DNA from: Octopus sinensis
Lineage: Eukaryota
NCBI RefSeq assembly: GCF_006345805.1
Contig: NC_043014.1
Coordinates: forward strand, 32,054,001-32,118,000
Direction of reading: 5' to 3'
Length of the DNA: 64,000 nt
The position numbers and the translations under genes were made by a program. Below, one piece after another: positions 13,538-26,670 of the stretch; the stretch's first letter is position 1; each line of letters starts with the position of its first letter. The notes beneath the pieces were generated by a model. The model made no database searches. It saw nothing but the letters and a program-made list of their open reading frames with translations, and had not been told where the DNA came from.

Positions 13538-13912
13538 TAAGCAATAAAGGGTTTAGCAACGAATTGCCTTACCACAGACCGAATTTAGAAATAGCAGTCA
13601 AAGAGTTATAGCTATTTCTTCTACTAAAAAGGGAGATCTCAGTAAAAAACACAGCAATTGGAAGGCAGACACAAACAGGTAAGAGAGAATGAATTGACGG
13701 CAATCTATCATACAATTTTAAGTTATCTACGGACGCACGTTTCGAAATCAAGTTTTTAGGAAAGCATAAGAATTAAATATTAAATAATTCTACCTTACCC
13801 AAACTTCTTTTCTCTTCAGCGTAGAATACTATAATCATAAATGATTATATATTGAATTTTGAGATACTATAAGGCACCAACTCAACTCAGTATCAGAGCG
13901 AGCTAGAATCCG
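13538..13912 (-). mobile_element. Penelope-like pLTR-type fragment between TA tracts
   Basis: Non-repetitive block bounded by (TA)n and containing a complete hammerhead fold. Confidence 0.55.
13726..13825 (-). ncRNA. Type I hammerhead ribozyme, canonical core, 61-nt loop II
   Basis: Minus strand: TCTACG-CTGAAGA-GAAA-[61 nt]-TTTC-GAAA-CGTGCG-TC-CGTAGA; stems I, II and III complementary; GUC cleavage triplet. Confidence 0.75.
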
Positions 13913-13916
13913 CATA

Positions 13917-13952
<36 letters not shown>

Positions 13953-13962
13953 TGTATGTATG

Positions 13963-14012
<50 letters not shown>

Positions 14013-14372
14013 AGTGTGAGAACATTTTGTAAACAAACTTAGAGGCAGTAGGTGAGTTCCCATCTTCTCAGGGTATTTAGCCAATTTTCTAAGTTGTTTT
14101 CATGGCCATTCTGTGTTTGAGAATTCTTGTATTTTACACACACACACACACACACATCCACAAATGAGTTCAAAGGGATGTATAATGTTGGTAATTACTG
14201 TGTTTTCTCTGAAATCAGTTTTATATGGTAGCTCACCACAGCAAACATTTGGTGATACTCAAATTAACAATAAGTTGAAACGTGCATGGGTTGATGAAAG
14301 AATGCTGTAATTAACTGTTTAATAAAGTTACAGATGTGGAAAAAACCTCCATTCTCCTGATCATTATTAATG

Positions 14373-14402
<30 letters not shown>

Positions 14403-14404
<2 letters not shown>

Positions 14405-14590
14405 TATATTAAATTAGAGACAAAACCACTATTAGGCAAATCATACAATGAAAAACTTAAGCCAATACTTAAGATTATTAATTTAATTTAATTTATATTA
14501 ATAATATAAATTAAATAATCTTATGTATTGGCTTAAGTTTTTCATTGTATGATTTGCCTAATAGTGGTTTTGTCTCTAATTTAATATAAT
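14403..14590. repeat. Near-perfect ~190-bp palindrome within a TA-flanked block
   Basis: ATTATATTAAATTAGAGACAAAACCACTATTAGGCAAATCATACAATGAAAAACTTAAGCCAATAC and its exact reverse complement. Confidence 0.95.
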
Positions 14591-14687
14591 ATAATATTTT
14601 ACTATAAAATTGGATTCAATCCTAAATCTGATTTTTCCCTGTAAGTTTGGATTTATTCCCTAATATTTATTATTATTATTATATATA

Positions 14688-14775
<88 letters not shown>

Positions 14776-14783
14776 CATATATG

Positions 14784-15120
14784 TGAAGGTGCATGGCTCA
14801 GTGGTTAGAGTATCGAGCTTACGATCACAAGGTTGTGAGTTCGGATCCTGGACTGGGCTGTGTGTTGTGTTCTTGAGCATGACACTTTATTTCACATTGC
14901 TCCAGTTCACTCAGCTCTAGAAATGAGTTGCAGTGTCACAGGTGCCAAGCTGTATCAGCCTTTGCCTTTCCCTTGGATAACACTGGTAGCATGGAGAGGG
15001 GAGGCCGGTATGCATGGGCGACTGCTGGTCTTCCATAAAACAACTTTGCCCGGACTTGTTCCTGGGAGGGTAACTTTCTAGGTGCAATCCCATGGTCAGT
15101 CATGAAAGAAGGGGATCTTA
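14784..15120 (+). mobile_element. tRNA-derived SINE family D, full length
   Basis: GAAGGTGCATGGCTCAGTGGTTAGAG A box, GAGTTCGGATCC B box; colinear with 12782-13107. Confidence 0.9.
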
Positions 15121-15583
15121 GCATATATATATATATATTTACCATCACAAAGGAAACAATCTCTTCATGGTTAAGTTGAGGAGCTTACACCACAGAATAA
15201 AGAACATGCACATCTTTTCTCTTTATAATATAAAGGTTTTACAGCTTGTTATCATTGGTAGCTATATACAGAGTTATTTCATTTTTTTTAGCAATCGTCA
15301 GTATGGCATAACTTTGAGATAAATAAATTAAGCTAAATTCAACATTCTAAAAAGATTCTTATAAAGAAAAAATTAGTTCATAGTGTTATTTTTTTTAAAA
15401 AAGGCACTGTTGATTTATTTTCCTTCCTAATTCATTAACTGTGTAGCATTAAAAAAAGAGAGAGCAAGAGAGAGAAATAGAGGGAGAGGGAGGAAGGAAT
15501 ATTTTTACAAGCAGTCCAAATTCTTCAAGAAAAAGGTCTGCCTTGCAACTGCGTTCTTTATTCCAGAATGGAAGACTTGTGAA

Positions 15584-15757
15584 ATGATGACAGTTATGAT
15601 GATGATGGTGGTGATGATGATGATGATGATGATGGTGATGATAATGGTGATGACGAGGATGATCATCATGATGGCAATGATGATGATAACGATGATGATG
15701 ATGATTATAATGGTGGTGACAACAATGAGGATTATGATGGTGATGATGATAATGATA

Positions 15758-23582: not shown

Positions 23583-23613
<31 letters not shown>

Positions 23614-23776
23614 TACGATGGGCTTCTTTCAGTTTCCGTCTACCAAATCCACTCACAAGACTTTGGTCAACCCAAGGCTATAGTAGAAGACACTTGCCCA
23701 AGGTGCCATGCAGTGGGACTGAACCCAGAACCGTGTGGTTTGTAAGCAAGCTACTTACCACACAGCCACTCCTACG
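23375..23776 (-). mobile_element. tRNA-derived SINE family A, full length
   Basis: Reverse complement of 30564-30972. Confidence 0.92.
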
Positions 23777-24134
23777 TCTGTATATATTTTATCAAGTAGT
23801 TAATCCATTTGTTCCATAAAGTTTTCACTCTCACACCATCTCTCTATCTTTATACAACTTTATTTATCCAGCTCCCCACGTATTGTAAACTCCACATTCT
23901 TTAACATTTATTGTATAAATTTGATGTTTTTCTGTGAGCTTGTGTGGCTAATAAAGTACTGGTTATTTGTTATCATTTATTCTTTTTCTTTCAGGTTTTG
24001 CTGTAACTCCTGGAGTCTTGCATGCTTAGAAGGCTTGCCAAAGAGGCAAACCTTTTGTAACAGTTCTACTGGCACTCTATTCCAATTTCCTTTATATTCC
24101 TCACATTGCTTTTATTATTATTATTCATGAGCAG

Positions 24135-24308
24135 GCCAGGCGACGTACTTACTGGTATTTTGTTTCTCTTCATGTTCTGAGTTCAAATTCTACCAAGGAC
24201 TTTTCCTTTCATCATTTCAGGGTCAATAAATTAAGTACCTGTGAAATACTGGAGTTAATATAATCAAATATTCCCCTCTCCATGAATTTCAGACCTTAGT
24301 AGAAAGGA
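24135..24308 (+). mobile_element. SINE family B, decayed
   Basis: TTCTGAGTTCAAATTCTACCAAGG..AATAAATTAAGTACC. Confidence 0.65.
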
Positions 24309-24515
24309 TTATTATTATCATTTATTATTACTCCTCCTCCTCCTCCTCCTCCTCCTACTACTACTACTACTACTACTACTACTATTACTACTACTACTAC
24401 TACTACTATTATTATTATTATTATTATTATGTGTGGCCTAGTGTTAGGGTGTGGCACTCAGGATCATGAAATTATGGTTTCAGTTCCTAGACCAGGAACT
24501 TTTTTCCCCCTTAAC

Positions 24516-24694
24516 ACATACCTTGTTATCAGCTGGGCATGCTATATCTATGATCCAGAATCATTTGCTTTCTTTCTCAATTAACACAATGTTTTCGTAT
24601 TCTTTATCTCATGGTCGCACTGAATCATAAAATCCCTTAGGGTCTTCTTTACATTATCCTTTTTGATGATGCCTTCAGGTTTATGTTCGTACCA
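24516..24694 (-). mobile_element. R4/Dong-like internal fragment next to (TTA)n
   Basis: Colinear with 20375-20554 (GGGCATGCTATATCTATGATCCAG...CACTGAATCATAAAATC). Confidence 0.8.
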
Positions 24695-24715
24695 TTATTA
24701 TTATTATTATTATCC

Positions 24716-24758
<43 letters not shown>

Positions 24759-25201
24759 TATTATTGTGGTTGTTGTAGTTGTTATTGTTATTATTATTAT
24801 TATTTTTTTGATTTTGAGTGAACATGAACGGAATAAAACATTGTACACAACATAATACAATTAACGATCTGAACTCAACAAGAAAACTTTAAAAACACCT
24901 GCATTTGAAACACTAAGAGCAAGAAAACGAAGAAACACATCTGGTTAATGTGATATCAACAACATCAATAAAAATAATAATTCGCAAATTTTAGCACAAA
25001 ATCAACAATTCTAAGGGAGGAGTATATATCATTTACATTACTCAAAGTAGTTGACTGGTGATGTTTTAATTGACCTCAAGAGATATACAACTTTGCCTCA
25101 GTAAAATGAGGCCTGTATATCTGTATATACACACATACATACTAACATACATGCATACATGCATACATACACACACACACACCACACATATATATATATA
25201 T

Positions 25202-25480
25202 AGGGATAATTCACAAAAAACAAAAGACAAAGACAGGTGGTGTAGACACAAACATATGTATTAGTATAATGCTCGGGAAGTGAAAAAGTCTTTAACGTTT
25301 CGAGCCTATGCTCTTCCACAGAAAGGAACACAGAAAGAAACAGGGAGAGAAAATAAAGAATGTGTAGTGGCTAGCGATCTATCATGGCGAATGCCGGACA
25401 GAGGGGTCACACAGTAGAGCTATGAAGAAGGGGAGATAGTAAAGTAGTGGGGATCCCAAAACGATGTTTATATGTATGTT
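25202..25480 (-). mobile_element. Penelope-like pLTR-type fragment (family F)
   Basis: 25202-25389 is the reverse complement of 32182-32380; carries an atypical hammerhead-like box GAGC-ATAG-GCTC-GAAACGT. Confidence 0.6.
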
Positions 25481-25945
25481 TAAGAGAGCATGTATGTGCG
25501 TGTGAAAGAGGGCTAGTGACCTTGACGTGTGCATGTGTATATGTGTAGATGTGTGGATGATGGTGTGGGGCTGGGAAGTGGTCAGTGCTAGTGTGTGTGT
25601 GTGGTGTGTGGTGTGGTGGTGTTGGGATATGGGGGAGGCGAGAGTAGGGAAAGCAAAGGTGGGGTGTGGGTTAGGCTGAGGGTGGGGGTAGAGGTGGGGT
25701 ATGTGGGTTAGGCTGAGGGTAGAGGTAGAGGTAGGGTATATGGGAGTGGGTGTAAGGGATGGGGTAGGGGTATGATGGGAGGGATAGGGAAGGTGGGGTT
25801 GGATTGTGTAGGGGAGGGGTTACGAGGAAGGGGTGACGATGAAGAGAGAGGGGGAAGGTGGGTAGGAGTGAAGAGAAGAGAGAAGGAGAGTAGGAGTGAA
25901 GAGAAGAAGTATGAGTCGGAGCAAGAGAGGAGAGGTGGGTGGGCT

Positions 25946-26258
25946 ATCTACTATAGCTTCGGGCTGACCAAAGTCCTGTGATGGATTTGGTAAATGGAAA
26001 TTGAAAGAAGCCCATCGTATATGTATATATATATGCATATGTATGTATGTGTATATGTTTGTCACCCCAACATCTCTTGACAACCGATGCTGGTGTGTTT
26101 ACATCCCCGTAACCTAGCCGGTCGGCAAAAGAGGCTGATAGAATAAGTACTAGGCTTACAAAAAATAAGTTCTGGGGTCAATTTGTTTGTCTAAAGGTGG
26201 TGCTCCAGCATGGCCACAGTGAAATGACTGAAACAAGTAAAAGAGTAAAAGAGTAAAA
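25946..26258 (+). mobile_element. SINE family A, 5'-truncated
   Basis: CTACTATAGC...GACTGAAACAAGTAAAAGAGTAAAAGAG. Confidence 0.88.
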
Positions 26259-26271
26259 GGATATATATATA

Positions 26272-26670
26272 TTTAATCAATATAGGGTAGCAAAAAATTC
26301 AATAGAAATTTTTTTCGCCACCAGCGGTCTAGTGAGAAAGAGAAAATAGTCAGAGACTATATATATAAATTCAACAACAATTGAGGAACGACCTCAATAG
26401 GCCATTCGACCCACTAGAAAGAGCAGCCGGGACTCAAACCGCCAAGTAGTAGTAATTCAGAAATTAAAGGAAAATTAAAAAAACATTTACCCTATTCATC
26501 TTTAGACAATGCATTGTTTCGACGTTTTTAATGGCAAACCAGCCTAATTAAATTAAATTAAACTTAATCAAGTCAATCTATCAAAGGCTACATCTCATCG
26601 GTAAAGAAGCCAGGAGGGACAGATATACACGAGGCAGCAGTATCTATGCCCTGGGAATATCTGCCCTAAA
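26272..26670 (-). mobile_element. Penelope-like pLTR-type fragment between TA tracts
   Basis: TA-flanked block containing a hammerhead fold. Confidence 0.55.
26499..26607 (-). ncRNA. Type I hammerhead ribozyme (U4C variant), 64-nt loop II
   Basis: Minus strand: TCTTTA-CCGATGA-GATGT-[64 nt]-ACGTC-GAAA-CAATGCATTG-TC-TAAAGA; palindromic stem III; GUC triplet. Confidence 0.7.

Follow-up and report, generated by a model that had tools for sequence, protein, structure and literature searches.

The hammerhead ribozymes described so far in Penelope-like elements (PLEs) are of type I, and accounts of three groups bear on the present case. For the Hydra clade, the published hammerhead table (26 rows; File S2, PMC8557442) gives loop 2 lengths of 3–10 nt on stems of 3–7 bp, including 7 bp and 8 nt for Hydra-1_oBim, and the core search reported in the same paper used a 7–17-nt spacer, with eight Naiad 'half-core' cases at 35–50 nt. 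Minimal PLE hammerheads are described as having a larger-than-usual helix II (6–8 bp) and a minimal helix III (PMC4209133), rather than the 'tiny stem II' assumed in an earlier, sequence-only reading of the DNA considered here. Non-LTR retrozymes, finally, have been proposed to be PLE derivatives (PMC7229834; 10.64898/2026.07.22.740005). Here we analyse a 64,000-nt stretch of the Octopus sinensis genome (assembly GCF_006345805.1, contig NC_043014.1, positions 32,054,001 to 32,118,000; hereafter the window, numbered from its first letter) in which three hammerhead motifs carry a helix II domain of 59–74 nt. We assign a probability of roughly 0.72 to the reading that these are type I PLE hammerheads whose extended helix II forms a long, imperfect hairpin and for which cleavage in dimers is predicted.

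Three long-arm hammerheads in the window

Three blocks with the stem order of a type I hammerhead and a long insert had been proposed from the letters alone, and a descriptor scan (helices I and II of at least 4 bp each, domain of up to ~170 nt) confirmed their coordinates, strands, cores and stems: its three matches in the window were exactly these blocks, and none arose in 100 of 100 local shuffles with dinucleotide content preserved within 500-nt blocks, so that shuffled sequence gave no comparable match frequency. The blocks are as follows.

13726..13825, minus strand: type I hammerhead, block 1 (descriptor scan, fold and Rfam model)
19698..19783, plus strand: type I hammerhead, block 2 (descriptor scan and fold)
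26499..26607, minus strand: type I hammerhead, block 3 (descriptor scan and fold)

In all three, helices I and II close the core and the open end lies at helix I, as in type I anatomy; the core CUGANGA...GAAA...UH is exact in blocks 1 and 2, and block 3 is the natural variant U4C. Block 1 combines a 6-bp helix I and the core CTGAAGA (13819-13813) with a helix II domain of 69 nt (13812-13744; insert of 61 nt), the palindrome ACGTGCGT (13740-13733) and a predicted cut after C13732. Block 2, matched by the scan only in a different register (19698-19791), has the core CTGATGA (19702-19708), a 59-nt helix II domain (19709-19767; insert of 49 nt), a decayed palindrome (19771-19778) and its cut-site position after A19779. 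Block 3 has the core CCGATGA (26601-26595), a 74-nt helix II domain (26594-26521; insert of 64 nt), the 12-nt palindrome ACAATGCATTGT (26517-26506) and a predicted cut after C26505. The near-palindromic stem III noticed earlier is indeed palindromic and suited to dimers, but it has decayed in the block 2 copy, where the self-duplex of AATGTCGT reaches −3.3 kcal/mol, versus −13.1 for the ACGATCGT of most family copies. All three lone window copies are likely to be inactive relics, block 2 most clearly.

As had been anticipated for searches with short loop limits, the Rfam gathering threshold was reached by no match in 8 loci known to carry long-arm motifs. Within the window, Hammerhead_1 (RF00163) aligns full-length to 13726-13825 with 21.2 bits (E 0.0074), under its 34-bit threshold, and the matches listed from the whole-window Rfam scan (150 of 509) were all of microsatellite type. 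Two further core...GAAAC-palindrome-GTA motifs occur at 11953-12049 (minus strand) and 31403-31508 (plus strand), with spacers of 62 and 71 nt and without an in-register helix I; they are possibly decayed members of other long-arm families.

The helix II arm

What had been called an oversized loop II of 49–64 nt stands in its length (inserts of 61, 49 and 64 nt), but the insert is a structured extension rather than an AT-rich loop: the inserts of blocks 1, 2 and 3 fold as hairpins (z of −2.1, −2.1 and −2.2 against shuffles), and the feature is therefore an extended helix II, an arm about three times as long as usual. Among genome matches, the median insert z was −1.6 over 26 distinct matches versus +0.25 over 40 controls, and helix II is predicted to hold ~18–26 pairs within 50–77 nt. 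The completely different yet complementary stems of the three blocks had been taken for covariation; as the blocks come from three unrelated families, this is not covariation as such, and covariation within lineages was shown separately. In the block 2 lineage (16 hand-picked sequences, arm length 57–60 nt), 92.5% of cells are paired, versus 34–45% with shifted partners, and both partners have changed in 9 of 26 pairs, including the apical pairs 40-48 (UA 8, CG 7) and 37-51. Two-sided change was found in 6 of the 20 pairs of a second lineage (12 sequences) and 4 of the 32 of family 3 (10 sequences), in which the distal arm has one-sided changes only. Apart from N7 and cores with U4C, the core bases do not vary between divergent subfamilies, in which the stems covary, and some internal-loop bases of the arm are invariant in the block 2 lineage. 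On these alignments the 'oversized loop II' is a helix II that is both extended and imperfect, and in the block 2 lineage compensatory changes appear to run to its tip; because the structures were named post hoc, from inspected alignments, and the sequences are related, the counts are supportive and are not a significance test.

Genome-wide abundance

In the 2.72-Gb assembly containing the window, the strict pattern CTGAWGAR-N-YGAAACRNNYGTH matched 21,536 times with a helix II domain of 50–77 nt (control, 27), 1,451 times at 33–49 nt (control, 23) and 2,605 times at 78–107 nt (control, 33), giving 24,141 matches with a domain of at least 50 nt. U4C cores and 12-nt palindromes, such as those of block 3, are left out by this pattern; one subtype of the block 3 lineage adds 210 motifs, and the family 1 lineage comprises 968. 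For short arms (8–32 nt), a looser pattern, not strictly comparable with the strict one, gave 55,629 matches versus 4,727 in the control, or ~51,000 above control. Helix I, helix II and the palindrome occurred together in 23 of 30 (the first 50–77-nt matches on C1) versus 0 of 80 metagenome controls, and in 5 of 10 and 3 of 10 matches at 33–49 and 78–107 nt, respectively; those 80, the matches listed from metagenomes for a similar pattern, contained no full fold. Long-arm motifs are thus present at high copy outside short-loop patterns, so that surveys by descriptor or Rfam model give too low a ribozyme count in genomes of this kind. At the upper end of the range, L316, L321 and L325 (loci are given L numbers) have helix II domains of 80–100 nt with helices I and II still closed and the palindrome kept.

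Block 2 and Hydra-type elements

Each block belongs to a separate repeat family built like a PLE, with (TA)n flanks, units in tandem and a 5'-truncated copy in inverted orientation, as expected from the initial assignment to several families of PLE type I hammerheads. Seeding with blocks 1, 2 and 3 gave 1,265, 2,028 and 2,131 candidates at first look, of which 40 per block were scored; these figures are not copy numbers. The suspected linkage to an open reading frame (ORF) for a reverse transcriptase (RT) and a GIY-YIG endonuclease (EN) was found for block 2; blocks 1 and 3 lie instead in non-coding tandem units. Two features of the window represent family 2.

19675..19919, plus strand: family 2 element, read as the 3' end (pseudo-long terminal repeat, pLTR) of a Hydra-type PLE
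19607..19674, minus strand: inverted 5'-truncated family 2 copy, comprising the hammerhead 3' half and a short 3' end

The inverted copy keeps an intact ACGATCGT palindrome at 19645-19652, and a possible 10-nt target duplication (19598-19607 / 19920-19929) surrounds the family 2 element. At 6 of 30 family 2 loci, Hydra-type GIY-YIG EN sequence is found upstream. In a genome search with the family 2 EN domain (19,188 candidates, 150 scored), an intact long-arm core was present downstream of the EN, in the same orientation, at 15 of the top 30 loci and at 15 of 20 loci picked mainly for long open frames, a set partly overlapping the top 30; among 19 EN loci that were re-examined, mostly without an intact core, several had point-mutated cores and others were interrupted or truncated.

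One locus, L131, is a complete pLTR-ORF-pLTR element with hammerheads 4,595 nt apart and an ATG ~210 nt past the cut site. Its single ORF encodes an RT followed by a C-terminal GIY-YIG EN and contains the motifs RWK (IRWKT), DKT (PADKTG), YRDD, CxCX5C, CxxC and CxH, without CCHH. For the EN of the block 2 lineage, the Pfam GIY-YIG model gave E 2e-4 and 22 bits, just short of its cut-off of 22.6. The CxCX5C linker, with CxxC and CxH around the E/N and no CCHH, is common to L097, L127, L131 and L177; L180 has IRWKT and PSDKTR, and the L179/L180 lineage is without CxCX5C. RWK, DKT, YRDD, CxCX5C, CxxC and CxH without CCHH form the set that section 11 of PMC8557442 assigns to the Hydra clade. Long arms also adjoin divergent RTs, with 66% (L178, 50 nt) and 46–49% (L179, 47%, 55 nt) identity to L131, and the 16 block 2 subfamily sequences come from elements with EN identity down to ~62%. 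On the evidence of its motifs we identify the element that ends in block 2 as an autonomous PLE of Hydra type, with likeness to Hydra-1_Obim judged by eye from a passage of the published supplement. The lineage is called 'Hydra-type', not typical Hydra, because of its 4,595-nt period and 57–60-nt arm. A Naiad 'half-core' identity of the motifs was rejected, as the linked ORFs are of the C-terminal-EN Hydra type and the published Naiad_Ovul consensus, by eye, is without such a motif.

Hydra-type ORFs with long Asn-rich (AAT-repeat) RT–EN linkers and 3' untranslated regions (UTRs) of 0.6–1.5 kb were found at L127-L145, and these elements are therefore longer than described Hydra elements. The window itself contains a decayed Hydra-type PLE 3' end (56490-58080, plus strand) with an Asn-rich linker and, at 57071-57355, the remains of an EN domain (40% to that of family 2) that contain a stop codon, followed at ~58018 (plus strand) by a CTGATGA core and hairpin without the GAAA half.

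Families 1 and 3: non-coding tandem units

The window carries the following copies of these two families.

13534..13914, minus strand: family 1 element, a copy of 381 nt, truncated at the 5' end, of a non-coding tandem unit of 596 nt, with (TA)n on both sides
26273..26673, minus strand: family 3 element, a 5'-truncated 401-nt copy of a ~470–490-nt non-coding tandem unit, with (TA)n at its end
28336..28416, plus strand: family 1 3' end, a further fragment of 83 nt, 95% identical, without the ribozyme and with TA tracts on both sides

Family 1 is young (~99% identity) with a seamless 596-nt unit, and family 3 units measure 468–486 nt. In both families the tandems are preceded by an inverted 5'-truncated copy, and the units have closed sense-strand frames and a GC content of 0.35; a tandem array at L257 has at least 14 units of ~600 nt, each with one type I hammerhead. 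Known here from genomic sequence, blocks 1 and 3 are best classed as truncated copies of non-coding units of the non-LTR retrozyme type. Contigs of presumed RNA runs cover the family 1 unit and the L131 pLTR; the only junction in them is unit-to-unit (family 1), no splice joint occurs in them, and ends and strand are invisible in contigs.

The U4C substitution was found in 11 of the 30 family 3 lineage loci (L227-L256) and is fixed in an expanding subfamily. With it, an alternative pairing between the core and the 3' half of the palindrome becomes stronger, a possible monomer-silencing fold.

Neptune-type and Poseidon-type elements were considered as drivers of families 1 and 3 and rejected, as their hammerheads are short-armed and, by eye, no link is evident. 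Those examined in this genome all have short arms; among them, a very young Neptune-type PLE at L296-L300 has a 784-aa ORF preceded by ORF1, repeats in tandem with a period of 4.4 kb and gave 10,339 candidates. Its hammerhead combines a short helix II with the core TTGAAAA, in which U3-A8 is covariant.

Families 1 and 3 have in common a terminal hairpin (GGT...GC-A, loop, TTGCT...ACCCT) just ahead of the insertion end (L015:1215-1266, the L080 unit end and, in the window, 13540-13580 and 26280-26320, both on the minus strand), and family 2 and L131 likewise carry a TTTWTTGCT-like motif close to the end. Seen by eye, this hairpin or motif is a candidate RT recognition signal. At L026, a family 1 insertion lies between exon-like segments (112-615 and 2696-3199) that resemble a receptor guanylyl cyclase kinase-homology domain, and thus probably sits in an intron.

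Predicted dimer folding, insertion ends and a proposed mechanism

When two neighbouring units of a natural family 1 tandem are folded without constraints, the predicted minimum-energy structure is a double hammerhead, 7.3 kcal/mol below two monomers. The inter-copy helix III had a probability of 0.38–0.97 in 6 of 6 family 1 pairs, with similar values for the swapped helix I, and the monomer helix III a probability of 0.0.

All insertions that were examined terminate downstream of the cut site, and their ends adjoin TA-type microsatellites. They lie ~198 nt past the cut site in family 1, ~41 and 140 nt in family 2, and 147 and 232 nt in family 3, and L131 has two TA-flanked ends at 41 and 162 nt (from a probable DNA run). 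TA-type repeats abut all 18 distinct family 2 ends tested and 18 of 30 distinct family 1 contexts, most of the others continuing into the next unit. The Poseidon study describes two internal RT starts and a 'tail' (PMC11167929), and the two insertion ends per family observed here match those two starts. As both ends lie downstream of the cut site, we infer an uncut or re-ligated template.

We propose that transcription would read through tandem copies and that the long helix II would fold locally, steadying a weak AU-rich basal stem of 4–5 bp. Palindromic helix III strands of neighbouring copies could then pair and the helix I strands swap, forming a double hammerhead that would cut after GUC or GUA and release unit-length RNA. 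The released RNA would likely be circularised, or the uncut multimer used, because copies keep an intact cut junction. A PLE RT/GIY-YIG protein might then nick (TA)n and start internally, 40–230 nt downstream of the cut site, which would account for insertions that are tandem, inverted or truncated at the 5' end. In this scheme the cutting of the RNA, its circularisation, its expression and the part played by the arm are modelled steps. The young, ~99%-identical tandems, with their predicted double-hammerhead ground state, offer a clean test system in which two questions could be addressed: what role the hammerhead has in PLE retrotransposition, and whether the template is circular.

Alternative explanations

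Several observations weigh against reading these motifs as dimer-cleaving PLE hammerheads with an extended helix II. In family 3, the inter-copy helix formed in 2 of 4 pairs and the swapped helix I had a probability of at most 0.06 in all 4; the U4C pair at L080 (0.01) formed neither. U4C lowers activity in vitro, yet is tolerated by a viroid (PMC3088659), and cleavage by the lizard Poseidon hammerhead depended on protein, while insertion in vitro did not require that hammerhead (PMC11167929). Protein searches of L001-L030, L061-L090 and 75 loci at L197-L271 found no autonomous partner for families 1 and 3, yielding only opposite-strand neighbours, a weak match within a LINE-like ORF and, at L030, a decayed CCHH-type EN interrupted by a TA tract. 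As to the arm, the covariation counts are drawn from related sequences, so that events are not independent; RNAalifold alone missed the hammerhead fold in A1, returning only the apical hairpin and an alternative helix; and tip length varies via slippage (52–74 nt in family 1, 60–80 nt in family 3). This variation counts against a strict role of the arm, as do the findings that arm sequence is not common to the lineages and that no covarying arm–flank long-range helix or pseudoknot was found in two lineages with 90/60 nt of flank.

The strongest alternative, which we regard as a real possibility at somewhat worse than even odds, is that the ribozymes are genuine and the long arm is neutral baggage, grown by slippage or fold-back in a helix II that tolerates insertions, and selected only against misfolding. 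The differing arm sequences would fit such an origin, as would the excess over control at every length from 33 to 107 nt, the growth of tips by 5- and 7-nt slippage, the greater abundance of short-arm families (55,629 versus 4,727 in the control) and the short arms of the Neptune-type and Poseidon-type elements. Neutral growth is harder to reconcile with a length held at 57–60 nt over 16 subfamily sequences whose EN identity falls to ~62%, with compensatory apical pairs and invariant internal-loop bases, or with the strong length mode (21,536 matches at 50–77 nt versus 1,451 at 33–49 nt).

A more speculative idea, and in our view an unlikely one, is that the 50–77-nt helix II is a dedicated regulatory module on more than 20,000 uncounted motifs, a natural aptazyme with a putative binding site for the Hydra-type RT–EN or a host double-stranded RNA-binding protein, which would switch cleavage or ligation on or off and so gate cleavage and circularisation. 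Engineered aptazymes usually carry their insert in helix II, and an arm that binds protein would be their natural counterpart. The block 2 lineage keeps the length, apical hairpin and invariant unpaired bases of its arm, the post-cleavage arm would adjoin the new 3' end, and protein-assisted cleavage of a PLE hammerhead (PMC11167929) provides an analogy; against this, the lineages have no sequence motif in common, and the search of the two lineages gave no covarying long-range helix between arm and flank. If the idea is true, a regulatory arm may conceal similar ribozymes in PLE families recorded as hammerhead-less.

We consider it improbable that the motifs are cleavage-dead and kept solely as a structural landmark for reverse transcription: the frequency of U4C in the family 3 lineage and Poseidon insertion in vitro without need for the hammerhead (PMC11167929) would suit a dead landmark, but the core stays invariant across divergent subfamilies, N7 and U4C apart, while the stems covary, and so do the palindromes. 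Least probable of all is that the family 1 arm holds a 5' splice site, GGTAAG, whose splicing to a downstream polypyrimidine-AG would remove the ribozyme 3' half and compete with cleavage, since, although this motif or a near variant is retained in the arm 5' strand over most of the lineage, a pyrimidine tract with AG at its end is found ~110 nt beyond the cut site and Drosophila virilis PLE introns overlap the hammerhead (PMC4209133), one listed variant is GCTAGG, other lineages are without the motif, and its bases are also paired in the arm, which accounts for their conservation.

Other repeats in the window

Dispersed repeats of ~200 nt occur in both orientations, some beside PLE fragments (7146-7435, 17197-17420, 23379-23786, 26056-26263, 46540-46777 and 53411-53664), and are probably of the short interspersed element (SINE) type.

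Comparison with known systems

A literature search found no paper on hammerheads with a 50–100-nt helix II in PLEs and no cephalopod hammerhead survey; subscription papers were mostly outside the search, so absence from print is not established. The long-arm architecture, which we read as a dimer-cleaving type I hammerhead with an extended helix II, is a real, abundant and apparently uncatalogued variant of PLE/retrozyme type I hammerheads.

Among described ribozymes, the mycovirus 'long helix II' hammerheads (PMC13725137) are likewise of type I, upstream of an ORF and without clear loop–loop contact, but their helix II is given as 6–8 bp and their helix III as monomer-capable, whereas a long arm and minimal helix III are found here. 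The Selaginella PLE-X hammerheads are also PLE-borne, of type I and long in loop 2 (~30–35 nt), and are marked as departing from canonical structure (File S2, PMC8557442); unlike the many families and more than 20,000 motifs here, they are listed for two single plant EN-minus families, are shorter and show no covariation in that table.

Also comparable are the minimal PLE hammerheads (Cervera and de la Pena 2014, PMC4209133; PMC6765202), which have the same type I fold and palindromic minimal helix III and are described as dimer-dependent, often in opposite-strand pairs 100–700 bp apart; here, likewise, dimers are predicted. Their 'large' helix II of 6–8 bp (PMC4209133) differs from the ~18–26 predicted pairs here.

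The units of blocks 1 and 3 agree with non-LTR retrozymes (PMC7229834; Li et al. 2026, 10.64898/2026.07.22.740005) in that they are non-coding, have a low GC content (35%) and repeat in tandem with a single type I hammerhead per unit, forming arrays of at least 14 units here (L257). At 470–600 nt, they exceed the 150–450 bp of one account (PMC7229834) and lie inside the 51–972 bp of the other (10.64898/2026.07.22.740005). They differ from the retrozymes of these accounts in their long helix II and in the PLE-type inverted 5' copies and (TA)n targeting directly seen here.

The block 2 elements, finally, have the C-terminal GIY-YIG EN, the RWK, DKT, CxCX5C, CxxC and CxH motifs without CCHH, the (TA)n targets and, close to the 3' end, the type I hammerhead with a helix III that is short and palindromic, all as described for Hydra-clade PLEs (Craig et al. 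2021, PMC8557442). What sets them apart from that description is their size, with a 4,595-nt period, Asn-rich linker and long 3' UTR in L131 against a usual length of <3 kb, and a helix II domain of 50–60 nt where the clade has a loop 2 of 3–10 nt.

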